Below, one piece after another: positions 38,817 to 50,758 of a stretch of 52,748 bases of DNA. This DNA comes from Escherichia phage LF82-19. The stretch lies in the sequence record PV660457. The stretch is one strand, 5' to 3'. The translations under genes and the position numbers were made by a program. The notes beneath the pieces were generated by a model. That model did no database searches and had not been told where the DNA came from. It was given only the letters and a program-made list of their open reading frames with translations. Each line of letters begins with the position of its first letter. The first letter of the stretch is position 1.

Positions 38817-38859
38817 ATTATTGCAGATCACGCCGATTTAGTTTTAACAAAAAGTGCTA
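38817..38859 (-). promoter_or_regulatory. palindrome TAGCA-N5-TGTTA plus hairpin with AATAAT
   Basis: TAG stop of upstream gene is the first half-site; 22-nt gap. Confidence 0.5.
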
Positions 38860-39204
38860 TTTGATGCCGTCAAAGGTTGTGTATTTCAGGTTCACACTGA
38901 CCTTGCCATCATCGAAATGGAAAGCGGGAGCCTCAAAGCGGATGATGTTATTCATCGTTCCGGCCTCTACGTAGCGTCGTGCGCCATTTCTCATGGGGAT
39001 AACGCTGACTCTCTTTGCCGCATCGAATGGATTTGAAACGCCAAAGTATCGACATACAGCGCCGCGCAACGCCTCATCTTCATGCTTATGCATATCACGG
39101 ATGAGGCGATTTTTAGCGTCCATCATCACATCATAGCTTGCACAGCTAGAGCCGATGTTGCTATATTCGCGCATTCCGCCAACCTTGAATTGATTGTTGT
39201 TCAT
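38857..39204 (-). CDS. hypothetical protein
   Basis: 115 aa. Confidence 0.45.
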   Translation of the reverse strand: MNNNQFKVGGMREYSNIGSSCASYDVMMDAKNRLIRDMHKHEDEALRGAVCRYFGVSNPFDAAKRVSVIPMRNGARRYVEAGTMNNIIRFEAPAFHFDDGKVSVNLKYTTFDGIK

Positions 39205-39449
39205 GGTAACTTTACCTCGTTGTATTCACAGAATTCGATTACATATTCACAGCTATCGGTTGACTCAGTGCCGCGCAGAACATCACAGCCGCCATCACTA
39301 CCCAAGAAGGCCGGGCATGAAGCGCACAGCGCGCCGCCGCAATTCGATTCGACGATTGACATTCCGTTACACCTTCCGCCGCCGAATCGGTGCGGAAAGT
39401 CATAGGCGCGGCAGTCGCACGTAACCTGGTGTCGCTTACGCTTTTGCAT
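39201..39449 (-). CDS. cysteine-rich small protein (putative metal-binding)
   Basis: 12 Cys in 82 aa, including CDC and CxxC-like spacings. Confidence 0.45.
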   Translation of the reverse strand: MQKRKRHQVTCDCRAYDFPHRFGGGRCNGMSIVESNCGGALCASCPAFLGSDGGCDVLRGTESTDSCEYVIEFCEYNEVKLP

Positions 39450-39660
39450 CTGCCAGCCACTTAGCGTATTTTGCGCGCTGATTCATTGAGCAGGTGATCC
39501 CCTCTTCCTTCATGTTGCTCGCGCGGTAGATCTCAACCTGTGATTCCGTGTTTAACTTGCCATCACGAACGTAAACGGAGCCACGGAAGGTGTGGAAAAC
39601 TACATCTTTCATGGTTGCAGCCAGCGCCAGGAATTCAGACTTTTTCATCATATGTGCCAT
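39436..39660 (-). CDS. hypothetical protein
   Basis: 74 aa. Confidence 0.4.
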   Translation of the reverse strand: MAHMMKKSEFLALAATMKDVVFHTFRGSVYVRDGKLNTESQVEIYRASNMKEEGITCSMNQRAKYAKWLADAKA

Positions 39661-39691
39661 TTGCTTATCTCCGTTTCGTTTTAGTGGTTAC

Positions 39692-39734
39692 ATTATGCCG
39701 GGTTTCCGCCCGGCACGTTTAGCAATTAGTGCTA
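39692..39734 (-). promoter_or_regulatory. palindrome TAGCA-N5-TGCTA plus hairpin with CATAAT
   Basis: on minus: TAGCACTAATTGCTA, 22 nt (GTGCCGGG ... CCCGGC hairpin), CATAAT. Confidence 0.5.
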
Positions 39735-39941
39735 TCAGATTGATTCGATTACCGCGTGGAAATCTTTGCGGGTTTTGCAGTCTGCCAGGCGTGCATAACA
39801 TGCTTTAGCGTAGTCAGTATCGGCCTGAGTTTCGAAGATGCCACACTCTTTGGCGATAGCTTTTAATGTACGCTTTCCGCTTTCGATATCAGCCTTGATG
39901 CCGTTGATGGTGTTGATGTCGATGATGTTAAGAGTTGTCAT
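39735..39941 (-). CDS. hypothetical protein
   Basis: 68 aa. Confidence 0.4.
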   Translation of the reverse strand: MTTLNIIDINTINGIKADIESGKRTLKAIAKECGIFETQADTDYAKACYARLADCKTRKDFHAVIESI

Positions 39942-39978
39942 TTTGCTATCCTTTTGTGTGCTTCGTTTCGATGGAGTA

Positions 39979-40021
39979 ATAATAGCAAAAGCCAGATCGG
40001 GAGTTTTAGCAAAAAGTGCTA
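39979..40021 (-). promoter_or_regulatory. palindrome TAGCA-N5-TGCTA plus -10 TATTAT
   Basis: 22-nt gap; palindrome itself flanked by inverted repeat CCGGATCGGGA / TCCCGATCTGG. Confidence 0.5.
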
Positions 40022-40083
40022 TTTTCCCGATCCGGCGCGCGGAACATCTGCCCCATGGTTTGGGGTGTTAACCAGTCAGAGCG

Positions 40084-40512
40084 TCATGCGTAATAAAGCC
40101 CTGATGTTAGTTTCTCAACGTCAACCTTCGCCTTGTACGGCTTATCACACCCAAGGCACCAGGCTATATAATCAGCGCCATGATCACAAGACGAAATCCA
40201 GACGCGCCATTGCTTTGACCCGGCGTGCCAGCGATACAGAACCTTGTAATCCTCACTATGGAAGTAAACGCCATCATCATCATCGCGGATGATATGCCCA
40301 CGCTCAAACAGCTTGAAGCGCTTCACGGTTTCGATGATGTAGCGCGCCTGAGGGTTAGCGCTCCCGGTTTTGTACACGCGCCCGGCTGACATTTTGCCTT
40401 CACTATCACTGATGCGAACCATCGTCATTCCACCATCGACGTGCTGACGGGTAACAGTGGCACCACGGCTTTTGGCGAACTCCAGCGCCTTGATCAGATG
40501 TTTGTTTTTCAC
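40084..40512 (-). CDS. hypothetical protein
   Basis: 142 aa. Confidence 0.45.
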   Translation of the reverse strand: MKNKHLIKALEFAKSRGATVTRQHVDGGMTMVRISDSEGKMSAGRVYKTGSANPQARYIIETVKRFKLFERGHIIRDDDDGVYFHSEDYKVLYRWHAGSKQWRVWISSCDHGADYIAWCLGCDKPYKAKVDVEKLTSGLYYA

Positions 40513-40724
40513 GCTTTATTCCTCGTTAATTTGAAAGTCAATTCAACCTCGCCCACAACCTCCGCCATCCCATGATTTACCATGTAACGAAACTCTTCAT
40601 AGGTAAATGCGGTTTGCGCTGGCAGGCCATCCATGATGCGCATACAAGGCAACTCACTGTAGCGCGTCATTGGGATCGCGTACTCGCGCCCGGTTGTCTT
40701 AATGCGGATAAGTTTCATTTTCAT
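40509..40724 (-). CDS. hypothetical protein
   Basis: 71 aa, overlapping neighbours by 4 nt. Confidence 0.4.
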   Translation of the reverse strand: MKMKLIRIKTTGREYAIPMTRYSELPCMRIMDGLPAQTAFTYEEFRYMVNHGMAEVVGEVELTFKLTRNKA

Positions 40725-40906
40725 TGCGCCTCCATCTCCTCAACTGAACCACAGTACCCTTTCTCATTGTTGATCTCATCCTCACGAGCAACCGCATCAC
40801 TCTCTTTAAGCCATACGCTATCAACCTCTGAGTCTCCGCCACTAAAGAACTCGTGACGCATCACAACGTATACGATCATAACCACTCCATTGCTTTGATG
40901 ATGCAC
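40721..40906 (-). CDS. hypothetical acidic protein
   Basis: 61 aa. Confidence 0.35.
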   Translation of the reverse strand: MHHQSNGVVMIVYVVMRHEFFSGGDSEVDSVWLKESDAVAREDEINNEKGYCGSVEEMEAQ

Positions 40907-41124
40907 TCTGCCTGTGAGCCGATAAACGAGTTGTCTTTGGTATCAGCTCTCCACTGACGCGATCCTTTTGCCACCTGGGTGCACGTAATCATAACGCCAC
41001 CACGATAACCAACCTTGAACGCGTTTGATGTCTTGCCATTACTGCGCTTACGGAAATGGTCAGTAACGATTACTCCGTTGTCAGTTGCAGCGTCGATTGC
41101 TTGCTGAATGGTTAACTTGCTCAT
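40876..41124 (-). CDS. hypothetical protein
   Basis: 82 aa. Confidence 0.4.
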   Translation of the reverse strand: MSKLTIQQAIDAATDNGVIVTDHFRKRSNGKTSNAFKVGYRGGVMITCTQVAKGSRQWRADTKDNSFIGSQAECIIKAMEWL

Positions 41125-41127
41125 AAA

Positions 41128-41367
41128 TTACCCCTTGATAGTCAGGCCGAAAGCCTCAACCAGAATGTCACTTGCAGCGTGCATTTCGCAACGAGCAACC
41201 TCACGGTCATCAAAATTCTCTACAGCGTACATCACAACACCACGAGCCTGATCAGCTTCTACAAACTGGTTGCAACGGTCATTCAGTTCTTTCGCTAACT
41301 CAGCGTCAAAATCAGCCGTTACGCCTTCGATAAACTCCGCCTCGGTGATGATGTTCATGTAGCGCAT
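41128..41367 (-). CDS. hypothetical protein (first gene of minus-strand early operon)
   Basis: 79 aa, RBS GAGGAA. Confidence 0.45.
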   Translation of the reverse strand: MRYMNIITEAEFIEGVTADFDAELAKELNDRCNQFVEADQARGVVMYAVENFDDREVARCEMHAASDILVEAFGLTIKG

Positions 41368-41398
41368 TGCTGTTTCCTCAGTTCGTTTCGTTGAGATA

Positions 41399-41441
41399 AC
41401 TATAGCCGAAACATCCTGAGTGGTTTTAGCAAAAAGTGCTA
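41399..41441 (-). promoter_or_regulatory. palindrome TAGCA-N5-TGCTA plus -10 TATAGT
   Basis: 22-nt gap; leftmost promoter of the minus-strand early operon. Confidence 0.5.
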
Positions 41442-41562
41442 TTGATTCGATTTATCCAATTATTCCATTATTCCAACTATTCTGGAATATTCCTGAATAA
41501 CCGAATATCTGGAATAGTCAAAATGACTATGGCTCTCCGTTCGTTTTAGCGAACAAACGTTC

Positions 41563-41582
41563 GATGTGATGTGATGTGATGT
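41563..41582. repeat. (GATGT)x4 tandem repeat
   Basis: GATGTGATGTGATGTGATGT in divergent control region. Confidence 0.6.
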
Positions 41583-42015
41583 GAATGAGGGTGAGGAGGC
41601 GATCAGATCTGATCCCGAAACTTTTTCCCTCACCGCACGATTTGCTAATGAATTGTCGTGCCTGTAGTTGTATGTTGTGTTTTACGTTTTCCGTGGAAAT
41701 CGGTACGCGCTACTACGCGGAATAACAATGTTATGCTTTATATATAGATATATAAGTATATATAAAATAAAGGTTTTTTATTATATATATTATCTAATTT
41801 CATAACACTTTATAACGTGTTGTGTTTGTTCCGCCGGACGCGGAGTGATTGATATGTTTCGCGGCCTATTTATGCCTATATTGTGAAATATGGGTAGGGG
41901 GATATATACCCCTCCGAAATCCGCAACAAACGCTTAATACGCACTACAACCCAGCAGGAATGCACCATGTAGAGGAGATTTTGTTGATAATGGCAATAAT
42001 CGACACAAATTAATC

Positions 42016-42044
42016 TTGACTACAATTAAGCTTTTCCGCATTAT
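42016..42044 (+). promoter_or_regulatory. strong sigma70-like early promoter
   Basis: TTGACT - 17 nt - CATTAT, about 30 nt upstream of first plus-strand early gene. Confidence 0.55.
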
Positions 42045-42076
42045 GGCGGCTCAACCAATCAGATGAGGTATCACCC

Positions 42077-42574
42077 ATGACACTTGCAGAAGTATTGCGC
42101 TATATGGCAACCGAAGCCATGAAATCCCCTGAGAAGGAGATCACCGTGCCAGTGTGGCAAATCCTGGTTCAGGCACACAATCTGGACGCTGACGAGCGCC
42201 GCGCATTACAGGCAGACTTTGACAAGCGCGTTGAGCTGGTAGCAAGTGAGAAGCGCCTGACCAACTCGTACATCACCAACACCTGCAACCGCATGAAGGA
42301 AATGATCGCGGCTGACCTATCCATCACCACAAAGCGTGGCGAGGACGACGGCGGGAATCGGACGCTCACCCTGGGCGTTAAGCCCGGCGCAATGAAGCTG
42401 GGCAGTCGGAGCAAGTCGGAGAACATCGCGGCGAAGAATGCAGTGCAGGATTTTGCCCGGCGCATCATGGAGATTGCCCCAGCACTAGATAGCCTGAGCG
42501 ATGATCGCGTTGCTGGTGCCGTCGATGGCGTGCGCATGATGAAAGAGCTGATTGCCAGGGAGGCCGGACTATGA
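42077..42574 (+). CDS. hypothetical protein (first plus-strand early gene)
   Basis: 165 aa. Confidence 0.5.
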   Translation: MTLAEVLRYMATEAMKSPEKEITVPVWQILVQAHNLDADERRALQADFDKRVELVASEKRLTNSYITNTCNRMKEMIAADLSITTKRGEDDGGNRTLTLGVKPGAMKLGSRSKSENIAAKNAVQDFARRIMEIAPALDSLSDDRVAGAVDGVRMMKELIAREAGL

Positions 42575-42783
42575 AGCTTCGAATAGCTATCGTTTCCGTT
42601 GTGCTGCCATTCAGCGGCGAGCGCAAAAACACATACGCCGTTCAAAAGCGGATCGGCTTCTTCTGGTGGCAGACGCTTACCCTGTGTGACAGCTTGCCCC
42701 AGGCGCGCCACTATGTACGCCACACCCTGGAAGATCGCAGTGGTGAAAAGCTGGTCAAGGTTCTGAATCGTTATTCCTCTTGA
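42571..42783 (+). CDS. hypothetical protein
   Basis: 70 aa, ATGA overlap. Confidence 0.35.
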   Translation: MKLRIAIVSVVLPFSGERKNTYAVQKRIGFFWWQTLTLCDSLPQARHYVRHTLEDRSGEKLVKVLNRYSS

Positions 42784-42798
42784 ATGGAATAATTGGAA

Positions 42799-42841
42799 TA
42801 GCACGAACTGCTAAAACACCAGATCGGGGCTATGCCATAAT
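42799..42841 (+). promoter_or_regulatory. palindrome TAGCA-N5-TGCTA plus hairpin with CATAAT
   Basis: 22-nt gap; hairpin GGGGCTA ... TAGCCCC. Confidence 0.5.
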
Positions 42842-42872
42842 AGCCCTACACCAACAAAACGAGGTTAGCACA

Positions 42873-43088
42873 ATGGAAACTGTAACAATCGGCGCTAAGC
42901 CGCCATCATTTGACAACTTCCCGTCGCAATTCGTTGAGGATGAATACGGTGACGAAACAGAGGTGTCTTTAATTCACTCGTCAGGCAACAAGTCTGTACT
43001 CATGGAAAGCGGCAACATGATTTTCACGCCAGATCAGGCGCGCGAACTGGCTGCGGCTCTCATCAAGGCGGCTGAGGTGTGCGAATGA
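42873..43088 (+). CDS. hypothetical protein
   Basis: start METVT; track extension from 42780 covers the promoter. Confidence 0.4.
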   Translation: METVTIGAKPPSFDNFPSQFVEDEYGDETEVSLIHSSGNKSVLMESGNMIFTPDQARELAAALIKAAEVCE

Positions 43089-43294
43089 AGTTCAAAACTA
43101 CATACGTATCACCGCGCGCTCGCGTTGCATTCAACCTGCGCAAGGGTATGACATACGACGCTGAGAAGATTGGCAATCAGATTTCGGTGCGCGTGCCTAT
43201 CGGTAGGCTCATCATCAAGCTCCAGGGAGAGAGGTTCATGAGTCGCTCAATGACGGGCGAATTACTCGCGGCATGGGAGGAAGTGAAAAAATGA
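43085..43294 (+). CDS. hypothetical protein
   Basis: ATG overlapping previous stop (ATGA). Confidence 0.4.
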   Translation: MKFKTTYVSPRARVAFNLRKGMTYDAEKIGNQISVRVPIGRLIIKLQGERFMSRSMTGELLAAWEEVKK

Positions 43295-43599
43295 TGATTT
43301 TGAATGACCGAGAGGAGCTACAGGAAGCCGTGAGACTGGCGCTAAAATCAGACGTGCCATTTATCGAAGTTGTGCTTTGCGTGGCTGCCAGCCTCGATGT
43401 ACGGCCCCGTGTGGCTGCTTTCATGGTTCACTCTAACACCTTCGATATGGCTGGCACATTCCAGGGTGATAAATTCCTTGAATTCTTGATGCAGCTAACC
43501 GATAAGTTCGAAGCCATGCATCCTGACCGGATAAGCGCCAGTGGGCAGATCCTGATCGAGGAGTTCACCAACTTTGTGATTCGCGGTACATGGCGATAG
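43291..43599 (+). CDS. hypothetical protein
   Basis: ATGATG start overlapping previous stop. Confidence 0.45.
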   Translation: MMILNDREELQEAVRLALKSDVPFIEVVLCVAASLDVRPRVAAFMVHSNTFDMAGTFQGDKFLEFLMQLTDKFEAMHPDRISASGQILIEEFTNFVIRGTWR

Positions 43600-43639
43600 C
43601 ACTTTTTGTTAAACGTGTGCCGGGCTAATCCGGCATACT
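43597..43639 (+). promoter_or_regulatory. palindrome TAGCA-N5-TGTTA plus hairpin with CATACT
   Basis: TAG stop is the first half-site; hairpin TGCCGG ... CCGGCA; 22-nt gap. Confidence 0.5.
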
Positions 43640-43669
43640 GTCACCACACCAACCAATCAAGAAGTCAAC

Positions 43670-43948
43670 ATGAAGACGTTAAAAGAGATTTTGGCAGAAA
43701 TTGACGAGGCTGCGCTCAAGGATAATGACGACGAGGCCACAACAAGCAAGAAGATCCTGACTTGCGGAGCCACTCACATTGCGCAAGATGCAGACGGCGC
43801 AGTATTCGCATTCAGGGGTAAGCCAACCGCCACGAAAATTGAGGATATGACGGAGTGGTTTAGCGGCGAAAAAGGTGAAGTGCTGTTATTCTGCGCAGAC
43901 CTGGAAAAGCCAGAAGATTGGACGCAGTGCATTTGGGAGCTGCCATAA
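43670..43948 (+). CDS. hypothetical acidic protein
   Basis: 92 aa. Confidence 0.45.
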   Translation: MKTLKEILAEIDEAALKDNDDEATTSKKILTCGATHIAQDADGAVFAFRGKPTATKIEDMTEWFSGEKGEVLLFCADLEKPEDWTQCIWELP

Positions 43949-44268
43949 TGAAAAAGTTTGTCGGATCGTGTTTGCTGGTTTCTGTCCTGGCGCTGGCGTT
44001 CATCGCTCTCGCAGGGTGTGACGACTCAACCCGCGTGCCTCGTGAGCAGCGTAGCAAGGTGCGGGTCACAACGGCTGAATCCGGGCGCGTGCAGGTGCGC
44101 AAGATCAGCGAATTCCGTGACGACCTGGCTTATGACAGCTATCGAGGCGTGTACATCATCACGGACACTGAAACCGGGCAGGAGTTCATAGGCGTTAGCG
44201 GTGTTGGTATCAGTGCTATCGGGCAACACAATTGCGGCAAAAACTGCTGGAAGAAAGATGAGAGATAG
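43948..44268 (+). CDS. lipoprotein (early-expressed)
   Basis: MKKFVGSCLLVSVLALAFIALAGC: signal peptide with lipobox LAGC. Confidence 0.55.
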   Translation: MKKFVGSCLLVSVLALAFIALAGCDDSTRVPREQRSKVRVTTAESGRVQVRKISEFRDDLAYDSYRGVYIITDTETGQEFIGVSGVGISAIGQHNCGKNCWKKDER

Positions 44269-44308
44269 CACTTTTTGTTAAAACTGCCCGGAGCGATTCG
44301 GGCATAAT
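44266..44308 (+). promoter_or_regulatory. palindrome TAGCA-N5-TGTTA plus hairpin with CATAAT
   Basis: hairpin GCCCG ... CGGGC; 22-nt gap. Confidence 0.5.
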
Positions 44309-44337
44309 GATTTCACACCAAACGAGAGGAAGTGAAA

Positions 44338-44952
44338 ATGTTTAAATTAGTTCGCGGCGTAACAACTCCAAATGACATTCTTATCCATGTTGCATCCGGC
44401 GCACGCTATGACGTTCCTGACAACACCAAACAGGTTGCAGTAGATCAGGATGGAGAAATATACGCCTATGAATCCGGCATGGCTAAAGTAGAGCACGGGC
44501 ACACCGGATGGAGTGATAACGGATATGATGGTTTTGTCAAGTGCATCGGTAAGATTCCGAGCGATCAGGAAAACATGCCGAAAGGTGTATTCCCTGGATG
44601 GCTGGACTCATTGACAAGCATCGACGCGCTTAAGCTTTCGCCGGAATACGCCCCGCTAGGCAGTAAGAAAAAGATTGAGATCGCAACACCCGTTCGCATT
44701 GGCGGCTCACAACTCCGCGCTCGTGTCACGGAATATCTTGACCGCAAGATGAAGGATAACGTTGTCGGATCTGTTCGGGCGCGCCACTTCCTTTCTGACA
44801 TTCGAAGCGAGGGCTTCACGTTCGAGAACTACCGCACAGCCGATCTCGTCCTGGCTCTGGTTACTATCGGGTGCGATCTCAAGCTGGCTCGTGACTATGC
44901 AGCATTCCGCGCCATTGATGATGCGGTTCACTTTGTGCGAGGTGAGGCATGA
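44338..44952 (+). CDS. hypothetical protein
   Basis: 204 aa; ATG 44338 preferred over GTG 44332. Confidence 0.5.
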   Translation: MFKLVRGVTTPNDILIHVASGARYDVPDNTKQVAVDQDGEIYAYESGMAKVEHGHTGWSDNGYDGFVKCIGKIPSDQENMPKGVFPGWLDSLTSIDALKLSPEYAPLGSKKKIEIATPVRIGGSQLRARVTEYLDRKMKDNVVGSVRARHFLSDIRSEGFTFENYRTADLVLALVTIGCDLKLARDYAAFRAIDDAVHFVRGEA

Positions 44953-45080
44953 ACCTAACAACTCTTGAGGCGATCATTGTCGCTACCGCTGGCTTACTCG
45001 TTGCTGGCATCATCATTGAGCAAATTGCCTATACCTGGTTGCAGATTGTTAAGCGCCGGAAGGAGAAAGGTGATGATTAA
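44949..45080 (+). CDS. small membrane peptide (43 aa)
   Basis: MNLTTLEAIIVATAGLLVAGIII ... single TM helix; overlapped by a second 34-aa TM ORF at 45073-45177. Confidence 0.3.
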   Translation: MNLTTLEAIIVATAGLLVAGIIIEQIAYTWLQIVKRRKEKGDD

Positions 45081-45174
45081 TGCAATCGGCGCGGCATGTC
45101 TTCTTGCTTCCGTCACTGTGGTTGCGGTTGGCGCTGTTTGGCTAATGGCAAAAATATTGCGTGAGATTGACGAA

Positions 45175-45217
45175 TAGCACGAATTGCTAAAACGGCATGG
45201 CTCCTGAGTGGTATCAT
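45175..45217 (+). promoter_or_regulatory. palindrome TAGCA-N5-TGCTA plus hairpin with TATCAT
   Basis: hairpin ACGGCATG ... CATGCCGT; 22-nt gap. Confidence 0.5.
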
Positions 45218-45249
45218 GCCGTTACACCAAACAAACAGGAGTCACCCAA

Positions 45250-45615
45250 ATGAAAGTTAAATGCATTAGTTCAGACGTTTTGCTTGATGGTTACTACACC
45301 CCAGGTAGAGTCTACCGATTAAGGCGAGAAAGGGGCAAAAGCTATAGAACCGTTAAATCAAACAGAGGCGTTGATCTTGGTGTTATCCACGACCCATTAA
45401 AAAGAGGTCGGTTTTTCGTTGCTGGATTTGAACGTTGTGTGTTTGATTCGGCTCCGCACCGATTCGTGAAGCGCAACCAAAGCGCCGCGCTGGGGCAGAT
45501 TGAGATCGACTATACGCGATGCAAGCGCAGCATTCGCAATCAGGCTCGCAACATCGCAAAAGAGCACTTCTCGTGCGGCAAGCTTGAGAAGATTGCGCGA
45601 GGCTATAAGCGATAG
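45250..45615 (+). CDS. small basic protein, MKVKC family member
   Basis: MKVKCI ... YYTPGRVY; Arg/Lys-rich. Confidence 0.5.
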   Translation: MKVKCISSDVLLDGYYTPGRVYRLRRERGKSYRTVKSNRGVDLGVIHDPLKRGRFFVAGFERCVFDSAPHRFVKRNQSAALGQIEIDYTRCKRSIRNQARNIAKEHFSCGKLEKIARGYKR

Positions 45616-45655
45616 CACTTTTTGCTAAAACTTCCGCAAGGGCATTTGATATAGT
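45613..45655 (+). promoter_or_regulatory. palindrome TAGCA-N5-TGCTA plus hairpin with TATAGT
   Basis: hairpin AAGGGCA ... TGCCCTT; 22-nt gap. Confidence 0.5.
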
Positions 45656-45695
45656 GCCCTTATTGAAGCAGAGCAAACCAATCAGAGGATTCAAC

Positions 45696-45905
45696 ATGGC
45701 AATACCAACATTTACCCGTAAGCAGTTTACCGAGTTCTTCCGCCTGGTTAACATGAGCGGCAGCCCGCACCAGATGGATCGCATCACTAGCCGCCTTGAA
45801 ATGCCCAAGTTCGTTGAGGCAGTCGGGCGCAAGAATTGCAATAGCATGTGGGCGCTGATTAATGGCGGCGTTACACCATCAACCTTAGACCCGGAGATCA
45901 AATAA
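45696..45905 (+). CDS. hypothetical protein
   Basis: start MAIPTF; track ORF 45654 overlaps promoter. Confidence 0.45.
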   Translation: MAIPTFTRKQFTEFFRLVNMSGSPHQMDRITSRLEMPKFVEAVGRKNCNSMWALINGGVTPSTLDPEIK

Positions 45906-46270
45906 TGCGCATTCGTTTATTAAACCCGTCAATCTATACCGGAATGGAGCTGAGCAAATACAACTCAGATCCTATGCACGACGAAAGCAACTACCCGGTT
46001 ATTGTTGAAGCGTCAGAGAAGGATCACAACGGCTTTGAATTCACAGGCCGGGCGCATGTAAGCTACAAGGAGCTTGATCGCGTATTCCCATACGGATTCG
46101 AGCGCGACAAGTGCGAACCTGGGAAGGGCATTGGCTGGTGGAATAACCCGGTAAAACGAGACGCTAAAACGCCTCAAATCTCATGGGAGCCAGTATCACC
46201 GTTTGACTACTGGAACAAGCTGAAATCATCCCGCCCGGTTGGTGACGTGGTTCCGGCGGGGTACTTATGA
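45905..46270 (+). CDS. hypothetical protein
   Basis: 121 aa, Trp-rich. Confidence 0.45.
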   Translation: MRIRLLNPSIYTGMELSKYNSDPMHDESNYPVIVEASEKDHNGFEFTGRAHVSYKELDRVFPYGFERDKCEPGKGIGWWNNPVKRDAKTPQISWEPVSPFDYWNKLKSSRPVGDVVPAGYL

Positions 46271-46518
46271 GAAAATTAACCCGCGATGAGGAGCGTTTTA
46301 AATCGTGCCTCAAGAAGTCAAAGCAGAAGGCTATCATCATGGATCGCAACTCATCCGGTCAAGCCTTCTGGCATTTCCCGGACGTTGAGCAAACGGGATG
46401 GCACCCGGACACTATACGAGATCTCATGCGTGATGATCTTGTTGAGTTCGGGTTAATGGATAGTGGGCACCCTAACGGACAGCCGCGATACAGTAACGCA
46501 AAGTGGATAGGGGGTTGA
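46267..46518 (+). CDS. hypothetical protein
   Basis: 83 aa. Confidence 0.4.
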   Translation: MRKLTRDEERFKSCLKKSKQKAIIMDRNSSGQAFWHFPDVEQTGWHPDTIRDLMRDDLVEFGLMDSGHPNGQPRYSNAKWIGG

Positions 46519-46519
46519 T

Positions 46520-46708
46520 ATGCAGATCTACAAATCGCCAGGCGGAGCAAGATATGTCGTTGTTGATGGCGTTGTTTACTGCAAGCCAGCAGATGGAAGC
46601 ATGGTTTACAGGCCGCGCATGACGGTTGAGCGATATCTTGAGCTTATCGCTGGCGGTCTTCTGACATTCCATTGCGTTATTCGCCCGGTAATGTTCAAAA
46701 AGCACTAA
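46520..46708 (+). CDS. hypothetical protein
   Basis: 62 aa. Confidence 0.4.
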   Translation: MQIYKSPGGARYVVVDGVVYCKPADGSMVYRPRMTVERYLELIAGGLLTFHCVIRPVMFKKH

Positions 46709-46742
46709 TTGCTAAAACTTGCTAAGAGGCATTTGTTATAGT
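46700..46742 (+). promoter_or_regulatory. palindrome aAGCA-N5-TGCTA plus hairpin with TATAGT
   Basis: stop TAA inside spacer; hairpin AAGAGGCA ... TGCCTCTT; 22-nt gap. Confidence 0.5.
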
Positions 46743-46780
46743 GCCTCTTGTCGAGTTAACACAAATACAGAGGATTTGAA

Positions 46781-47485
46781 ATGAGCATTCAACGCTACTA
46801 CCCTGAAGTGAAGTACACAGTGCGGGAAACTCGCGTTAATATGGCTCCACACGAGCGCGGAAGCTATGTGACCTATGAATCACACATCGAAGAATTGCGC
46901 CGCGTACAGGCCGAATTAGACGCCTTAAAAGCGATGCAAAAAAGCGATTTTTTCTATCACCTAAAGCCAGTCTTCGAAAAGGCGCTTGAAGAGGCGATTG
47001 CTATCGTCGTGAAGCAAGCCAGCCAATCAGTTTTCAAGGTTGACGCTGAGGCGCTAATTGCTGCTGACGTTGGCCGTTGGATGGAGAAGCACATGAACGA
47101 GCGCGCCGGATTTGCAACTGGCAGCCTGTTTGTGGGTGATGTAGAGGTTGATTTCGACAACAACAAAGTCAAGATCACCGATGCGCTAATCAAGAGCGGC
47201 GTTGTGACTGAAAGCGAATTATTCTCTTTCCCTAAGGCACGAAAGAACATTGTCGTTTGCACAAGCGCCGATGAAGGTAGCGGTTTCACTATTGGAAAGA
47301 AATACGCATTCGATCGCAATGAAGGGAACATTATCCGAATCTGCCAGGATGATTTTGTTTCAGATCTCGCAGAGGATGATTGCTGGATTGCAAGCCGCCG
47401 CCGAAACCTGGTAAGCGGTGAATTCAGATACTTCTTACAGGGGCATACAGAAGGCAAGCGCGCATCTTTCGAGATCGTTGAATAG
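46781..47485 (+). CDS. hypothetical protein with C-terminal MKVKC-family-like segment
   Basis: 234 aa; internal VVCTSADEGSGFTIGKKY matches the family motif. Confidence 0.5.
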   Translation: MSIQRYYPEVKYTVRETRVNMAPHERGSYVTYESHIEELRRVQAELDALKAMQKSDFFYHLKPVFEKALEEAIAIVVKQASQSVFKVDAEALIAADVGRWMEKHMNERAGFATGSLFVGDVEVDFDNNKVKITDALIKSGVVTESELFSFPKARKNIVVCTSADEGSGFTIGKKYAFDRNEGNIIRICQDDFVSDLAEDDCWIASRRRNLVSGEFRYFLQGHTEGKRASFEIVE

Positions 47486-47525
47486 CACGAATTGTTAAAC
47501 GGGCATGTGTTCCGACTGGTATCAT
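47483..47525 (+). promoter_or_regulatory. palindrome TAGCA-N5-TGTTA plus -10 TATCAT
   Basis: 22-nt gap; CCGACTGGTATCAT resembles 45175 and 49742 copies. Confidence 0.5.
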
Positions 47526-47555
47526 GTGCCAACACAAACAAGCAAGGGGCTTTAA

Positions 47556-47723
47556 ATGTTCGAAGAAAAGAAACACAGGCCGGAACAAGCTTACTCAAGG
47601 GTATCACGCACCGTTAAAGAGCGTAGGCGCTGGGTTAAGTATTTCATGAATCAAGGCCACACCAGATCGGTTGCGATTGGCCTGGCTAAGTGGGCAACAA
47701 ACAACTACAACGGGAAAAACTGA
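47556..47723 (+). CDS. small basic protein (55 aa)
   Basis: MFEEKKHR ... ; stop overlaps next ATG (TGATG); not listed separately in track. Confidence 0.35.
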   Translation: MFEEKKHRPEQAYSRVSRTVKERRRWVKYFMNQGHTRSVAIGLAKWATNNYNGKN

Positions 47724-48355
47724 TGAACTTTCAAATGTACACTATGATCAAGCATCACTTACTTACTCATCCAGATCAGCCAGTCTACATCTTCGACTAT
47801 GACGGCACGCTTTCGGATGGCTCTCACCGACTGGACAAGTTGCCAACAAAAGATTTGCACCTCACCGAAAGCTGGGAAGAGTTCAATCGCCTTGCTTCAT
47901 TCGATGAGCCGATCGAAACAACCATTCAGGTGATGAATTCACTTTATAAGGCTGGCGCTTTCGTTATCGTGTTAACCGGGCGCGCCGATAGCGTTGTTGA
48001 AGAGTCAACACAATGGCTGCATGATGCTGGGGCGAAATATACAGTGATGGTGATGCGTGGGCGTGACGACAATCGCAAGGACACGATCATCAAGGAGGAA
48101 TTCTTGCGCTACATCGGACTTGAGCGAATTACAGCGGCGTGGGATGATAGCCCAAAAGTGATCGAGCATTTCCGATCGCTGGGCATCACAACCTACCAGG
48201 TTTGTGATTATGGCGATAAGACTCACGCGCATCTACAGTCACACGGCGTGAAAGATGCTGGCGGAGAGTGTGAGCATATTTGGGAGCGTCACAGTATTGG
48301 TGACGATTATTATGAATGCTGTGTTTCATGCGGCAGATCAAGAGGCATTAAGTAA
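47723..48355 (+). CDS. HAD-family phosphatase (polynucleotide 3'-phosphatase-like)
   Basis: FDYDGTL (DxDGT) motif I near N-terminus; start at 47723 not 47690. Confidence 0.6.
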   Translation: MNFQMYTMIKHHLLTHPDQPVYIFDYDGTLSDGSHRLDKLPTKDLHLTESWEEFNRLASFDEPIETTIQVMNSLYKAGAFVIVLTGRADSVVEESTQWLHDAGAKYTVMVMRGRDDNRKDTIIKEEFLRYIGLERITAAWDDSPKVIEHFRSLGITTYQVCDYGDKTHAHLQSHGVKDAGGECEHIWERHSIGDDYYECCVSCGRSRGIK

Positions 48356-48963
48356 TGGCAACTATCATCATTCTGAATGCGCCGCCGCGCGCCGGGAAAG
48401 ACACGATCGCGAAAATCATCGACGAGCAATACGGCTTGCCAGTTGTGAGCTTCAAAACTCCGATGTTCAACATTGCTCGCGGCATCTTGGGCGAAGCGGA
48501 TTTTAAAGAGTTCATGGCGGTTTACGAAACAGACCGCAAGGACACACAGCCGTTAAGTATTCTGCATGGCAGCACTTGCCGCGAGTTTATGATCTGGATT
48601 AGCGAATCCGTGATTAAGCCTCATTTCGGCAAGAAGCATTTCGGCTGGCTTATGGCTGATTTGCTCAGCGAAATGGAGGATGATGTTGATCTCACAATTT
48701 GCAGCGATGGCGGGTTCCCGGATGAGGTAGAGGCGTTGATTGACTTCGGGCACCGTGTCAAGCTGGTTCGTATGCACCGTGAAGGCTTCGACTTCTCGAA
48801 AGATAGCCGTGACTACATCTACCTTTCCGAAGAGTACAAGAGCAAGCCTGGTGTTGTTGAGTTCGATCTGACATTGCAGGACGGTTGCCCTAATCTGGCT
48901 GCTGAGACTATCGCGTCATTGTTCATTGCCCATCATAAACCAGATAACGAGATCCCTTGGTAA
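48355..48963 (+). CDS. P-loop kinase (polynucleotide or nucleotide kinase-like)
   Basis: Walker A-like NAPPRAGKDT; ATGA-coupled to the phosphatase. Confidence 0.55.
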   Translation: MATIIILNAPPRAGKDTIAKIIDEQYGLPVVSFKTPMFNIARGILGEADFKEFMAVYETDRKDTQPLSILHGSTCREFMIWISESVIKPHFGKKHFGWLMADLLSEMEDDVDLTICSDGGFPDEVEALIDFGHRVKLVRMHREGFDFSKDSRDYIYLSEEYKSKPGVVEFDLTLQDGCPNLAAETIASLFIAHHKPDNEIPW

Positions 48964-48964
48964 A

Positions 48965-49007
48965 TAGCACTTTTTGTTAAACCCGCTTCGGCGGGTTTTG
49001 TTATTCT
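48965..49007 (+). promoter_or_regulatory. palindrome plus terminator-like hairpin plus -10 TATTCT
   Basis: TAGCACTTTTTGTTA-AACCCGCTTCGGCGGGTTTTG-TTATTCT; inverted duplicate of 37133-37175. Confidence 0.5.
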
Positions 49008-49036
49008 TGCTTTAACGAAACGAAATGGAGTGAAGA

Positions 49037-49267
49037 ATGAAAACTTTATCAGAGCTGAAGTCGATCGCGGCTGACTTGCAGGAGCGAATGAAGCCACTAA
49101 ACCACAAGCTGGAAAACTCGCGCATTACTATAGCCTCAAGAATGTCTATCGAGTGCTCACTGCGCGAACTTAAAATCATGTGGCATGATGCCATGTGCGA
49201 CGTTCACGCTCACCCTGAGTACGAAGGTGAGTTTAAATTCCAGAAAGAAAACAACCCATACCGATAA
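49037..49267 (+). CDS. hypothetical protein
   Basis: 76 aa. Confidence 0.4.
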   Translation: MKTLSELKSIAADLQERMKPLNHKLENSRITIASRMSIECSLRELKIMWHDAMCDVHAHPEYEGEFKFQKENNPYR

Positions 49268-49277
49268 GGATTCAATA

Positions 49278-49574
49278 ATGAACACTATCAAAAAGTTGAC
49301 TCCAAACATGGCAACCAAAATCAAGTACGAGATCCCGGAGGATGGCACATTCTTAGCCGTCTGGACTTATCGCGAGATCCCGTACTCCGGTACTTATCAA
49401 TGGCGAAACGGCGAGCTTGCCGTGTGGGTTGATGGCGTTGGCTGGGAAATTGCCGGGCATGGAGCGGCGGAGGACTATTACGATTTCAACTGCCTCGTGT
49501 CTATGGCTAGTGGTGAGAATTACGGCGGTGCTTGTCACTTTGTTGCGGTTGTAGTGGTTGAGGAAACAGCGTGA
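49278..49574 (+). CDS. hypothetical protein
   Basis: start MNTIKK with RBS TAAGGA; track ORF 49185 is an extension. Confidence 0.4.
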   Translation: MNTIKKLTPNMATKIKYEIPEDGTFLAVWTYREIPYSGTYQWRNGELAVWVDGVGWEIAGHGAAEDYYDFNCLVSMASGENYGGACHFVAVVVVEETA

Positions 49575-49744
49575 AGACTTTTATTATTTTCCTAGTTGGC
49601 GCTTGCATGGTTAGCGTTTCTGATAACTTCACAGTTTTCGTTGGCGCTGCGATGGTGTCGTGGGCTTACTACCGATGCGGAAAGGCTGACGGAATAGCGG
49701 AAGGTAAACGCCAGGCGCTGGCATCCGGCACTAAGTTAAAGTAG
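49571..49744 (+). CDS. small membrane peptide (GTG start, 57 aa; uncertain)
   Basis: GTGA overlap with previous stop; two hydrophobic segments; ends at TAG that forms the next palindrome half-site. Confidence 0.25.
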   Translation: MKTFIIFLVGACMVSVSDNFTVFVGAAMVSWAYYRCGKADGIAEGKRQALASGTKLK

Positions 49745-49784
49745 CACGATTTGTTAAAAGGGGATTCGTCCTGACTGGTATAAT
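49742..49784 (+). promoter_or_regulatory. palindrome TAGCA-N5-TGTTA plus hairpin with TATAAT
   Basis: hairpin GGGGATT ... AATCCCC; 22-nt gap. Confidence 0.5.
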
Positions 49785-49814
49785 CCCCACATCAACCAAG
49801 CAGAGGAAACGATC

Positions 49815-50267
49815 ATGAAATTAGTTTGCACATCATCACGCGTCAAAAGCTTCACCGTTGGAAAGAAATATGAAAGCCGCACAGTCGAGCATTACGGAAT
49901 TGTTACGCACGAGGTGGACGGAGACACCGCTTGCGGCTGGGTGATTAACGATGGCCTGAGCATTTGCGGAGCTGATCACTCAAACCCAATGGCAACTTTC
50001 CGCAAGGATAAGAGCATGATGAAGATGCTTGTTCGCGCATTCGTATTGGTTGCAAAGGCTCGCGGTTGGGGTGATAGCAAGAGCGGGGCTTACAAATCCT
50101 GGAGCGGCACACCTTACAAAAACTCCAGAGATTGGGCGCGAGCTATTGCCTTCAGCTACGATGTTGGGAGTGTTGCGCGCGAGATAATTGATGAAGATCC
50201 TAACGTGAAACTCATCGACCAGGAAGCGGTAAACCTGTTTGCCGAAAACGAGATCGACAACTGGTAA
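49815..50267 (+). CDS. MKLVC family protein
   Basis: MKLVCTSSRVKSFTVGKKY N-terminal motif; 150 aa. Confidence 0.5.
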   Translation: MKLVCTSSRVKSFTVGKKYESRTVEHYGIVTHEVDGDTACGWVINDGLSICGADHSNPMATFRKDKSMMKMLVRAFVLVAKARGWGDSKSGAYKSWSGTPYKNSRDWARAIAFSYDVGSVAREIIDEDPNVKLIDQEAVNLFAENEIDNW

Positions 50268-50329
50268 TTTGCGCAAGGCCGTTTATAATAGCGGCCTTAC
50301 TCAGACAAACCAATCAGAAGGAAATCACC

Positions 50330-50758
50330 ATGAAATTACGTTGCACATTCCTTGAGCCAGCTTTCGCAAAAGCTCTGGCTGAGTTCTACACCATCGGCAA
50401 AACTTACGCCGCATCCATCAAGCCGGGATCAAAGGTTGGCGCTGTGCTGGTGGAGTCAAACGAAGGCAATGAAGGCGATCAGCTTGCAGCAGTTCCGAGC
50501 CGCTCAGGGTTCGAGGTTCAAATTAAGAACCAAATTCCGATCGCAAAGTTCGAGGTTGTTGGCAAGCGTGCGGTGAAGCTTGTTAAGACTGAGAAGCGCG
50601 TAACGCTGAAACTTGATGGCGTGGGGAAATCAGATAAGCGCCGATTCCGCCGTGTTTGCCGCCAGTATCGAAAGTTGAAATTCATCAACCCTGGATTCTA
50701 TTATGATCTGGAATCCGATCGCCACATGGCTAAACTTGCGCGACATCACCGCCGATAG
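50330..50758 (+). CDS. MKLRC family protein
   Basis: MKLRCT ... FYTIGKTY; basic C-terminus; preceded by hairpin AAGGCCG-tttataatag-CGGCCTT. Confidence 0.5.
   Translation: MKLRCTFLEPAFAKALAEFYTIGKTYAASIKPGSKVGAVLVESNEGNEGDQLAAVPSRSGFEVQIKNQIPIAKFEVVGKRAVKLVKTEKRVTLKLDGVGKSDKRRFRRVCRQYRKLKFINPGFYYDLESDRHMAKLARHHRR

Follow-up and report, generated by a model that had tools for sequence, protein, structure and literature searches.

Organisation of the rightward arm

Why should a run of small phage genes be interrupted repeatedly by promoter-like palindromes, and do these give the genes independent control? The question arises at positions 42077-47485 of the window, by which we mean the whole 52,748-nt stretch of Escherichia phage LF82-19 (PV660457) that was analysed. 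In nucleotide comparison, the region matches PV660453 (Escherichia phage LF82-10) at 100% identity, and the phage is a T1-like siphovirus (Drexlerviridae) with Vilniusvirus as its nearest genus. We read the region as the rightward accessory-gene ('hyperplastic') arm of such a phage, its ORFans arranged in eight short predicted transcription units. The original prediction spoke of 14 unknown genes; a run of such genes is there, but it consists of 16 small ORFans on the plus strand, and each of the 16 starts listed is present and corresponds to a GenBank CDS of PV660453. Every gene was also said to be re-promoted, whereas seven modules divide the run into predicted units of 1-4 genes: g1-g2, g3-g5, g6-g7, g8-g10, g11, g12-g15, g16 and, beyond the last module, g17 with the polynucleotide kinase/phosphatase and dNMP kinase genes.

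The first unit comprises g1 (42077-42574, 165 aa; DUF7174, phrog_4841), which is conserved across Drexlerviridae, and g2 (42571-42783, 70 aa; phrog_2010), which has a homolog in Vilniusvirus; like all genes and modules below, unless stated, they lie on the plus strand. The predicted sigma70-type promoter that serves them, TTGACT-17-CATTAT, is indeed found at 42016-42044, 32 nt 5' of the ATG at 42077, and is without the 21-nt repeat described below. It cannot be called the strongest, because it scores 9/12 and matches of 11/12 occur at ~7085 and ~21121; sigma70-like matches around it are at chance frequency (14 observed against 17.9 expected). The promoters of the first arm gene elsewhere are TTGACG-16-TATTAT (KLPN1) and TTGACA-17-AACACT (T1), and the predicted canonical -35/-10 promoter of g1, as for these positional counterparts, would fit expression by unmodified host polymerase. 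The suggestion that g1 is a host shut-off factor was not borne out: DUF7174 is restricted to T1-like phages, homology and fold comparison found no functional homolog, and its fold match is weak and winged-helix-like.

Module 1 (42799-42872) has the repeat TAGCACGAACTGCTAAAAC and a TG-extended -10, CATAAT (42836-42841), which lies within the loop of a hairpin (42826-42847) and is followed by a CA-rich leader and an SD; it precedes g3 (42873-43088), g4 (43085-43294) and g5 (43291-43599), none of which has a counterpart in the four genomes compared (HazelMika, NBD2, T1 and KLPN1). The stop codon of g5 is the TAG of the repeat of module 2 (43597-43669; TAGCACTTTTTGTTAAAC; hairpin 43615-43638; -10 CATACT, 43634-43639), which is followed by g6 (43670-43948) and g7 (43948-44268), the latter a predicted lipoprotein of 106 aa (lipobox LAGC) and the best-conserved gene of the arm, with 81-92% amino acid identity to HazelMika/NBD2. 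Module 3 (44266-44337; TAGCACTTTTTGTTAAAAC; -10 CATAAT, 44303-44308) carries a GC-rich hairpin (44285-44304) within the spacer and stands before g8 (44338-44952, 204 aa) and the TM peptides g9 (44949-45080, 43 aa) and g10 (45073-45177, 34 aa). Module 4 (45175-45249; TAGCACGAATTGCTAAAAC; hairpin 45191-45223; extended -10 TGgTATCAT, hexamer 45212-45217) precedes g11 (45250-45615, 121 aa), which has a homolog in Vilniusvirus, and module 5 (45613-45695; TAGCACTTTTTGCTAAAAC; two-helix hairpin 45631-45668; extended -10 TGaTATAGT, hexamer 45650-45655) precedes g12 (45696-45905), g13 (45905-46270), g14 (46267-46518) and g15 (46520-46708). Gene g15 ends with the TAA at the centre of the repeat of module 6 (46700-46780; AAGCACTAATTGCTAAAAC; extended -10 TGtTATAGT, hexamer 46737-46742), whose long hairpin (46716-46757; -21 kcal/mol sense, -12.8 antisense) lies upstream of g16 (46781-47485, 234 aa). 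The stop codon of g16 is in turn the TAG of the repeat of module 7 (47483-47555; TAGCACGAATTGTTAAAC; extended -10 TGgTATCAT, hexamer 47520-47525; hairpin 47502-47530, with G·U pairs), the predicted driver of g17 (47556-47723), polynucleotide kinase/phosphatase (47723-48355) and dNMP kinase (48355-48963).

That palindrome/-10 modules separate gene groups holds, as does their reading as promoters: each has a -10 with A2/T6, often TG-extended, then an A/C-rich leader, an SD and an ATG, which makes internal re-initiation of transcription likely. Eight had been counted; seven lie within 42077-47560. An eighth, mirror-image module (41368-41441) sits on the minus strand outside this interval, with its repeat starting at 41441 and its -10, TATAGT, at 41404-41399, and is the predicted driver of the divergent leftward arm (first ATG 41367).

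A repeat phased with a -10 box

The supposed internal promoters of the arm are copies of a Drexlerviridae repeat with the consensus aaATAGCACnnnTTGyTAAAAc. A 21-nt direct repeat, aaATAGCACnnnTTGnTAAAA, has been published for TLS, T1, Rtp and Rogue1 (German et al. 2024, PMC11447400); in the available text of that paper the repeat is reported alone and its function is given as an open question. The modules are members of this family, sharing its consensus, its orientation with transcription, its distance of ~74-76 nt to start codons and its copy number of 18-24 per genome. Relative to the same available text, the 22-nt phasing, the covarying sense-RNA hairpin, the stop-codon overlap and the occurrence of inverted copies at late promoters are new. 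In the full window there are 24 copies, on both strands and co-directional with the genes (35 motif matches against 7.9 +/- 2.7 in shuffles, with 0 of 100 shuffles reaching 35), and the repeat is also found in T1 (~20 copies), KLPN1, NBD2 and HazelMika. The density of internal promoters, which had seemed unusual, is thus a Drexlerviridae-wide architecture, already published for TLS and T1 (PMC11447400).

Our family set holds 493 unique repeat copies from ~120 T1-like loci, and we defined a -10-like hexamer as one with at least 4/6 matches including A2 and T6. Such a hexamer, without a -35, lies exactly 22 nt downstream of the repeat in 420 copies (85%) and at +/-1 from this position in another 38, with all remaining offsets holding 0-52 copies (at most 20 each apart from +3); shared ancestry inflates these counts, and the result persists after clustering at 80%. 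Start codons follow the repeat at a median distance of 74 nt (IQR 73-76), and 227 of 445 copies contain the upstream gene's stop codon. Since the seven modules of the arm have one upstream element and one fixed spacing in common, we predict that they are co-regulated as a single class, contrary to the idea of independent timing, and that the differences among them are graded (-10 quality, hairpin strength) and not temporal. The phasing, together with a hairpin between repeat and -10, makes the role of the repeat directly testable.

Inverted copies at late promoters and a candidate regulator

The capsid promoter of the window, TTGACC-16-TATTAT, has the inverted repeat as its spacer, an arrangement also present in T1 and two other lineages. 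In the window, as in T1 and at seven other loci, the tail-fibre gene has an extended -10 with the inverted repeat after it, spanning roughly +1 to +20. The proteins downstream of the inverted copies are orthologous across lineages. A conserved gene on the minus strand (26843-27301) encodes a Cro/YdaS-like HTH protein; the gene has a promoter of its own, TGaTATAAT, which overlaps with the helicase-module -10, and its leader DNA contains the repeat; in T1 and KLPN1 the repeat likewise lies just 5' of the start of this gene. By position only, this protein is our best candidate for the regulator, with DUF7174 (g1) as the second candidate.

Our preferred reading, held with moderate confidence, is that the modules are composite promoter/attenuator cassettes, similar to the PeSL (promoter-early stem-loop) cassettes of other phages, and that the repeat is probably the site of a dimeric regulator that activates early units and represses late promoters. 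Each cassette of ~75 nt would run from the upstream stop codon (often the TAG of the repeat) through the 21-nt repeat and the 22-nt spacer to a sigma70 -10, often TG-extended and with no -35, and on to an A/C-rich leader, SD and ATG. The dimeric protein would recognise a core dyad, TAGCA-N5-TGCTA, whose half-sites are centred 10 bp from each other, and would substitute for the -35 contact from about -42 in the fashion of a class II-type activator; at the capsid and tail-fibre promoters, in which the inverted repeat fills the spacer or covers +1, this protein would act as a repressor, and the two activities would thus form one early/late switch. Activated promoters of this -35-less type include Pm and the late promoters of Mu, served by Mor and C, and PRM of lambda, served by cI; the activator is a small dimeric HTH phage protein, which can act as a repressor at sites that overlie a core promoter. 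The modules share with these a dyad near -42/-43 from the predicted start, a good -10 and no -35, but the candidate protein is Cro/YdaS-like and not of the Mor/C family. Against our reading, conservation of the repeat is asymmetric outside the dyad (aaA...AAAAC), a feature left unexplained by a plain symmetric dimer site. We found no transcript data on T1-like phages in the searchable literature, and starts, promoter activity and termination are predictions.

Host RNA polymerase could instead read the repeat directly, as an UP-element-like sequence or a -35 surrogate with no phage factor, which would make the modules constitutive strong early promoters and the inverted copies incidental. The A/T-rich flanks and the conserved TTG of the repeat agree with this, and the extended -10 found in 41 of the 74 modules of the five-genome set is able to dispense with a -35; about half of the predicted promoters might, with such a -10, fire activator-free. 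The idea of an UP element comes up in the TLS paper, whose authors, in the available text, state that TLS encodes no RNA polymerase or sigma factor (PMC11447400). However, the G/C positions that the repeat conserves (GCAC, G, C) set it apart from UP elements, and the whole asymmetric repeat is kept, inverted, inside the late promoters of diverged lineages. TTGyTA and the -10 are 22 nt apart, with AAAACn at the canonical -35 position, and such a gap exceeds the spacer range tolerated by sigma70. We consider direct reading by the host enzyme unlikely.

It is distinctly unlikely, in our view, that the repeat is a purely negative site, a stoperator or operator at which a phage protein silences or roadblocks the early units late, the module promoters functioning unaided. 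In the available text, the TLS authors liken the repeat to the stoperators of mycobacteriophage L5 (PMC11447400). Both occur as many oriented, short, asymmetric copies, which follow the direction of transcription and occupy small gaps between genes; moreover, copies overlap the capsid/tail-fibre core promoter or +1, and the leader of the regulator gene contains one as well. Stoperators serve a temperate phage as repressor roadblocks, whereas T1-like phages are regarded as virulent. To our knowledge stoperators are not phased with promoter elements, whereas 85% of the copies here lie exactly 22 nt from a -35-less -10, which indicates a role in initiation, and a site near -42 is poorly positioned for repression.

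A hairpin in the sense RNA

Between the repeat and the predicted start site, a stem-loop of variable sequence occupies or surrounds the spacer and -10; it is more stable than its shuffles (mean z -3.5). Among 169 cluster representatives, single mismatches within Watson-Crick helices are G·T in 51 cases and A·C in 4 (p = 2e-11), and the sense RNA is stabler than the antisense in 107 versus 58 (p = 2e-7). For the hairpin subtype of the modules at 45613 and 46700, 96.9% of cells are paired, with double changes at 6 pairs and a covariation of 0.435, compared with 0.169 in shuffles (0/500) and at most 0.11 in slid controls. The excess of G·U over A·C shows that the hairpin is selected in the sense RNA, so that it would form only in read-through transcripts; since its 5' arm precedes the predicted start site, it would fold only in RNA from the upstream unit. 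The palindromes are RNA-level hairpins on upstream transcripts, a feature that the original prediction overlooked. A U-tract is absent from six of the seven hairpins of the arm (type B), the 8-nt tail behind hairpins has a family-wide mean of 0.6 T, and a terminator scan found no intrinsic terminators in 42077-47485, so efficient intrinsic termination is unlikely in the arm; an attenuator or stabiliser role is our guess.

The selected hairpin would also suit a module that is an RNA-level signal (3'-UTR processing, stability or nut-like antitermination) with a secondary '-10', as would a repeat that in every case forms the transcribed 3' end of the upstream gene, often with the stop codon inside, and whose C/T variation in TTGyTA keeps a small UAGCA/UGyUA stem paired by G-C or G·U. 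Such a signal leaves unaccounted for the exact 22-nt phasing to the A2/T6 hexamer and the inverted copies that occupy the spacer of a promoter, outside its transcript, and no matching Rfam family was found; we hold it to be very improbable. The slimmest chance is that the phage exploits the abundant host regulator Lrp: the core TAGCAC-TTT-TTGCTA has 13 of the 15 positions of the Lrp consensus yAGhAwATTwTdCTr (PMC5554404), both flanking half-sites being exact, but the GAA and TAA centre variants deviate from the conserved central ATT, the conserved flanks beyond the 15-mer are unaccounted for, and the Keio screen with T1-like LL5, in its available text, gives LPS, TolC, PpiB and SecB as required and does not report lrp (PMC7229145).

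Portability of the cassettes

Under the composite promoter/attenuator reading that we prefer, each cassette would re-initiate transcription while attenuating, terminating or 3'-stabilising the incoming transcript, and would so reset the expression level of each unit, as PeSL cassettes do in the T4-like phages RB49 and phi1 (Arbiol et al. 2010, PMC2839356; Comeau et al. 2014, PMC4122927). PeSL stem-loops lie between -35 and -10 or over the -10, and their termination of transcription has been demonstrated (PMC2839356). Both kinds of cassette join a promoter and a stem-loop in ~70-100 nt from stop codon to SD/ATG, with the stem-loop between an upstream promoter element and the -10 or over the -10; both abound in hyperplastic early regions, among small ORFans, and both occur as near-identical copies beside unrelated genes, a pattern of modular shuffling. 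They belong to unrelated phage families and have no sequence similarity, and the consensus -35 and AT-rich UP region of PeSL are replaced in the modules by the 21-nt repeat at its 22-nt spacing. PeSL stem-loops terminate, whereas most module hairpins are without a U-tract and their effect is predicted from sequence.

Kinase genes excepted, the nucleotide similarity of the arm to T1 and KLPN1 is limited to the modules. About 60 nt of module 5 are at ~89-98% identity to modules of T1, KLPN1, HazelMika and ~75 weberviruses, where the look-alikes precede unrelated genes. Conserved cassettes could also provide homology for ORFan shuffling between phages. Among 562 near-identical module pairs, the downstream proteins are unrelated in 85 and the upstream proteins in 84.

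Organisation of the arm

The stretch 41400-47600 is 100% identical to Escherichia phages LF82-10, -11, -12 and -40 (PV660453 and others), in whose records all of its CDSs are annotated as hypothetical proteins. This match, together with a gene order that is that of T1, one of the classic T-phages, identifies the region as a rightward arm of small genes. The arm begins at a 709-bp non-coding divergent region (41368-42076) and runs to the polynucleotide kinase, dNMP kinase and (wrap-around) terminase genes. The structural genes of the Vilniusvirus phages NBD2 and HazelMika have ~75% nucleotide identity to those of the window.

All of the open reading frames listed in the original prediction exist and coincide with GenBank CDSs, but they number 16 (g1-g16) rather than 14. 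Each gene was thought to be re-promoted; instead, groups are, giving eight predicted transcription units: g1-2, g3-5, g6-7, g8-10, g11, g12-15, g16, and g17 (47556-47723) with the polynucleotide kinase/phosphatase (PNK) and dNMP kinase. The eight promoter modules (repeat, spacer, -10 hexamer and leader, with an embedded hairpin) are real, but only seven lie between arm genes on the plus strand, with motif starts at 42799, 43597, 44266, 45175, 45613, 46700 and 47483; the eighth, at 41441 on the minus strand, is predicted to drive the leftward arm. The putative g1 promoter, TTGACT-17-CATTAT (42016-42044), is present and well placed, 32 nt upstream of the ATG at 42077. That it should be the strongest is unsupported, because it matches the consensus at 9/12 positions, compared with 11/12 for sites that precede the gene at 7148 and the exonuclease VIII gene, and because sigma70-like matches in 38000-52748 are not above chance (14 observed, 17.9 expected from shuffles). 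In KLPN1 and T1, too, the first gene of the arm is preceded by a -35/-10 promoter and not by a repeat module.

Vilniusvirus homologs, with their order kept, were found for g1, g2, g7, g8, g9, g11 and g13-g17. No homolog of g3-g6, g10 or g12 was found in these nearest relatives, nor of any of the 16 arm genes in T1 and KLPN1, save a weak match of g8 in KLPN1. Conservation within the arm is by far the highest for g7 (43948-44268), with 81-92% amino acid identity to Vilniusvirus; it encodes a predicted lipoprotein (signal peptide and LAGC lipobox) that could be a Cor/Llp-like superinfection-exclusion protein. PHROGs and Pfam searches with the 16 arm proteins gave only "unknown" or DUF7174, which leaves the suggestion that g1 (42077-42574, DUF7174) is a host shut-off factor without support. 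PDB sequence searches with g1 and with the Cro-like regulator discussed below were empty, a word-index protein search gave only seven close homologs, and no paralogs were seen within the two arms at E < 0.01. Both g6 (43670-43948) and the N-terminal part of g8 (44338-44952) match phrog_1972 and have in common a D-x-DG-x3-(A/F)(Y/F) stretch, which may be a duplicated small domain; blastp of g6 against g8 is not significant.

The 21-nt repeat

The modules begin TAGCAC-N3-TTG(C/T)TAAA(AC). With at most one mismatch to TAGCACnnnTTGyTAAA, counting both strands, the motif is found in 7/7 region modules and in 24 copies in the window; at three mismatches or fewer there are 35 in the window, compared with 7.9 ± 2.7 in shuffles. 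The repeat has the orientation of the downstream gene in 22 of the 24 closer copies and lies 72-84 nt from the ATG in the region (family median 74, among the matches listed). In its consensus (aaATAGCACnnnTTGnTAAAA), its intergenic co-directional placement and its T1-like host genome, the module repeat agrees with the Drexlerviridae 21-nt intergenic repeat of the TLS/T1 type, and we identify it as such from its sequence. The latter was described in 2024 as a 21-nt direct repeat of phage TLS, which has 18 intergenic copies ~76 nt upstream of start codons; there are ~18-21 copies per genome, and T1, Rtp and Rogue1 carry it too (PMC11447400). Its authors, who detected no more than three sigma70-like promoters in TLS, speculated that the copies are stoperators, enhancer sites or UP elements, and left the function as an open question (PMC11447400).

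We find the motif ~20 times in T1 and also in KLPN1, NBD2 and HazelMika, and an exact-pattern scan of IMG/VR returned at least 120 loci, mostly on ~50-kb contigs. As the repeat is common across T1-like genomes, the module density, which had been called unusual, is a family trait and not peculiar to the arm operon. The observation is real, yet it is a standard Drexlerviridae feature, and the operon is not exceptional but a hyperplastic arm such as is typical for that family.

The repeat is closely joined to the coding sequence in front of it. In 227 of 445 modules (among the matches listed), the ORF in front terminates in frame at the TAG of the repeat. In the region, this TAG serves as the stop codon of g5, g7, g10, g11 and g16 (43597, 44266, 45175, 45613 and 47483), while g15 ends at a TAA in the centre of the repeat. 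TAA at +6 or +13 offers further stop codons, so that a gene joined at the repeat would readily be terminated.

Promoter signature

In every region module, the last base of TTGyTA is followed at exactly 22 nt by a TATAAT-like hexamer (CATAAT, CATACT, CATAAT, TATCAT, TATAGT, TATAGT and TATCAT in modules 1-7), five of these with TGn before them. When a hexamer is defined by at least 4/6 matches including A2 and T6, 420 of 493 unique copies (85%) have one at the exact 22-nt offset and a further 38 at ±1; other offsets between -18 and +30 account for 0-52 copies, at most 20 each save +3 (all among the matches listed). The canonical -35 position reads AAAACn, and no -35 was found 16-18 nt upstream of the module -10. 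Exact phasing and the AAAACn at the -35 position thus suggest that the repeat replaces the -35; assuming a start 7 nt after the -10, it would span ~-52 to -31. Downstream of the -10 there is an A/C-rich leader (A 47%, C 27%), then the SD and the start codon. The internal promoters of the original prediction are plausible, given a -10 phased 22 nt after the repeat, and their start sites are predicted. Their independent timing is unsupported, as the seven modules share one upstream element at one fixed spacing.

As far as we found, the promoter signature of the repeat is new here. Literature searches by the literal repeat sequence or by Drexlerviridae and promoter were uninformative, and the literature searched yielded neither a transcriptome nor a map of start sites for any T1-like phage (PMC13250531 concerns T5-like phages); for this reason, our statements on promoters, start sites and termination are predictions.

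The repeat could be read in other ways. UP-element, stoperator and pure-RNA readings each cover part of the data but miss the phasing and the inverted copies at late promoters together. A UP element is an A/T-rich tract at -40 to -60 without conserved G/C, whereas the GCAC, G and C positions of the repeat are invariant and the element reaches -31. Stoperators of the L5 type are repressor roadblocks that are independent of promoter elements, whereas 85% of the copies among the matches listed are exactly phased with a -10. The Lrp consensus yAGhAwATTwTdCTr agrees with the repeat at 11-13 of 15 positions, the flanking half-sites being exact and the central ATT being matched only in the TTT variant. 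Sigma54 promoters follow a -24/-12 consensus, TGGCAC-N5-TTGCW, in which GG at -24, GC at -12 and the spacing are fixed. We reject this look-alike because the dinucleotide is wrong (the repeat reads TAGCAC-N3-TTGC, with AG for GG), the spacing is 2 nt short in all copies and an enhancer-binding ATPase is missing, the sole large ATPase nearby (35028-36611, minus) being a DUF3987 protein with no Sigma54_activat domain. Neither rpoN nor lrp is among the host genes reported as required by the T1-like phage LL5 (PMC7229145). We also reject TTGyTA as an ordinary -35 with a -10 17 nt away, which fits only 3 of the 493 copies (among the matches listed).

RNA hairpins

The palindromes noted in the original prediction correspond to hairpins in the RNA. 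In nearly all modules, a stem-loop follows the repeat and precedes the predicted start site; its sequence varies among modules, and it is stable relative to shuffles (mean z -3.5). Hairpins of -6 kcal/mol or below lie between the repeat and the -10, or overlap the -10, in 371 of 420 modules among the matches listed. Type A hairpins (101 among the matches listed) sit wholly in the spacer and have a GC-rich stem and GNRA or UUCG loops; the U-rich -10 serves as their tail (at least four T in the 8-nt tail in 48%), and they are terminator-like. In type B (242 among the matches listed), which has no U-tract and includes most hairpins of the region, the -10 is in the loop and the 3' arm lies over the start site.

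The strand and the nucleic acid on which the stem-loop acts can be judged from its variation. Single mismatches in the Watson-Crick helices are G·T in 148 cases and A·C in 10 over all copies, and 51 and 4, respectively, after 80% clustering (p = 2e-11); the sense RNA is stabler than the antisense in 107 cluster representatives, against 58 for the reverse (all among the matches listed). For the subtype of modules 45613 and 46700 (25 distinct sequences), 96.9% of cells are paired, six pairs have compensatory double changes, and the covariation score is 0.435, compared with 0.169 for shuffles (0/500) and at most 0.11 with partner columns slid. The mismatch bias and the covariation exclude a cruciform in the DNA as well as an antisense role. 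A cruciform or a single-strand-type hairpin promoter does not agree with stem mismatches that are nearly all sense-strand G·T, nor with the variable position of the hairpin. A terminator of antisense transcription, for which the GTTTTA past the hairpin on the other strand could be taken, does not agree with the greater stability of the sense RNA and the rarity of A·C mismatches. Since its 5' arm always precedes the predicted start site, the hairpin would form only in RNA that is read through from the unit in front.

Canonical intrinsic terminators combine a GC-rich stem with a U-tract. The U-tract is absent from 6/7 region hairpins, whose tails read ACACCAA and similar, and a terminator scan of 42077-47485 gave no terminator-like site. 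From these two observations, we infer that the region hairpins attenuate transcription, pause it or protect 3' ends, in preference to efficient intrinsic termination. No Rfam family covers the modules. The modules at 37175 (minus) and 48965 (plus) have an identical hairpin, AAACCCGCTTCGGCGGGTTTTGTTATT, embedded in the spacer that separates the repeat from the -10. In form it is a bidirectional intrinsic terminator of the textbook kind, and these two modules are the clearest predicted case of a terminator within a promoter.

Portability of the modules

Besides the kinase genes, nucleotide similarity between the arm and T1 or KLPN1 is found only in the modules (60-90 nt, 75-90%). Module 5 (45613) is 96-98% identical over ~59 nt to ~75 weberviruses, and repeats form the ends of homology blocks in comparisons with HazelMika and NBD2. 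Near-identical module pairs at different loci (562 among the matches listed) precede unrelated proteins in 85 cases and follow them in 84.

These properties recall PeSLs, the promoter and stem-loop cassettes of T4-like phages, for which both transcription termination and a role in the modular shuffling of ORFans have been demonstrated (PMC2839356, PMC4122927). The stem-loop of a PeSL sits "between the -35 and -10 or overlapping the -10" (PMC2839356), and in the modules, too, a stable stem-loop separates the upstream element from the -10 or extends over the -10. As read from sequence comparison, the modules likewise flank ORFans and mark indel or replacement junctions. However, PeSLs have a consensus -35 and an upstream AT-rich region, whereas the modules have the repeat at -52 to -31, have no sequence similarity to PeSLs and belong to another phage family. 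By analogy, then, the modules appear to work like PeSLs without belonging to the PeSL family.

Late promoters and a candidate regulator

The 35 copies without a phased -10 (among the matches listed) are non-random and include conserved classes at late genes. In the major capsid promoter, TTGACC-16-TATTAT (6010-6060, plus), an inverted repeat is the exact spacer (core 6027-6043), with a hairpin next, ahead of the SD. T1 (15062-15090) and, among the matches listed, two IMG/VR lineages share this arrangement; in the window and these genomes, the inverted repeat forms the spacer of promoters that read TTGAC(C/G)- or TTGCAC-16-TATTAT/TATCAT. At the tail-fibre gene (25760-25830, minus), a terminator and TGaTATAAT are followed by an inverted repeat (25776-25792) at ~+1 to +20 that abuts the SD, as is also seen in T1 (34903) and at seven other loci among the matches listed. 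In Tunavirus, a copy in the forward orientation lies across the -10 of terS. The proteins downstream of the late copies are orthologous yet well diverged, and the repeat is retained. The structural block (1-19200) has no phased modules in the forward orientation.

A site used in both orientations, with activating positions at early and middle genes and occluding positions at late ones, is better explained by a DNA-binding protein as the reader of the repeat than by an RNA signal or a UP element. The core of the repeat is a dyad (TAGCA-N5-TGCTA) whose half-sites are centred 10 bp from each other; given the predicted start 7 nt after the -10, it spans -49 to -35. Class II activators (Mu Mor/C, lambda cI at PRM) act from a dyad site centred at ~-41 to -44 in promoters with no -35. 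The modules resemble these activator-dependent promoters in their dyad centre, -42 from the predicted start site, in having no -35 and in their good -10.

The best candidate for the reader is a Cro/YdaS-like HTH protein (26843-27301, minus), which is conserved, has 152 aa and only sub-threshold Pfam matches, and whose T1 homolog is annotated P22 C2-like; the DUF7174 protein (g1) is the other candidate. Both are predicted to be expressed from repeat-independent promoters. The repeat lies within the leader DNA of the Cro-like gene, and the intergenic region between this gene and the helicase (27302-27393) has face-to-face overlapping -10s, TATTAT (plus, helicase module) and TGaTATAAT (minus, regulator), a layout that resembles an autoregulatory switch.

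We tentatively suggest a joint reading, which we hold to be possible though doubtful, in which one phage-encoded bifunctional regulator, which would be DUF7174 or else the Cro-like protein, has the repeat as its operator, and the repeat marks a class of Drexlerviridae promoters that has so far gone unrecognised. The regulator, bound at -42, would switch on ~20 early and middle promoters that have no -35; on the inverted copies, it would keep the capsid and tail-fibre promoters off until titrated, for example by the ~24 sites per replicated genome, or inactivated. The RNA hairpins would insulate the units, and ORFans would be shuffled across Drexlerviridae by means of the same cassettes.

To the 21-nt repeat already known from TLS and T1, the analysis adds the exact 22-nt phasing to a -10, the lack of a -35, a hairpin in the sense RNA and inverted copies at late promoters, an anatomy that gives the unexplained repeat of Drexlerviridae a specific, testable mechanism. 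If this mechanism holds, it would account for the ordering of early and late expression in a phage that has neither a polymerase nor a sigma factor of its own, would make compact insulated promoter cassettes available to phage engineering and would explain the exchange of accessory genes, among them candidate anti-defence or exclusion functions, among therapy-used Drexlerviridae.

Other loci

Two long non-coding regions, 41368-42076 and 20678-21176, have similar (TA)n-rich cores and may be origin or pac regions. The former contains the short repeats GGAATA/TATTCC (~41455-41520) and two copies of GATGTGATGT (41563-41582); the latter has two copies of CGATACACGCAACTACAG and, upstream of exonuclease VIII, the best sigma70 match of the genome, TTGACA-16-TATACT. 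Compared with PV660453 (record 1-42300), the sole difference is a replaced segment in the tail-fibre gene, 55 nt in the window (25252-25306) and 202 nt in the record (25252-25453), which gives the 147-bp length difference and may represent a host-range variant among the LF82 isolates. A tRNA-Ser gene with anticodon GCU (52151-52238) lies near the end of the arm, with counterparts at this position in NBD2 and HazelMika.
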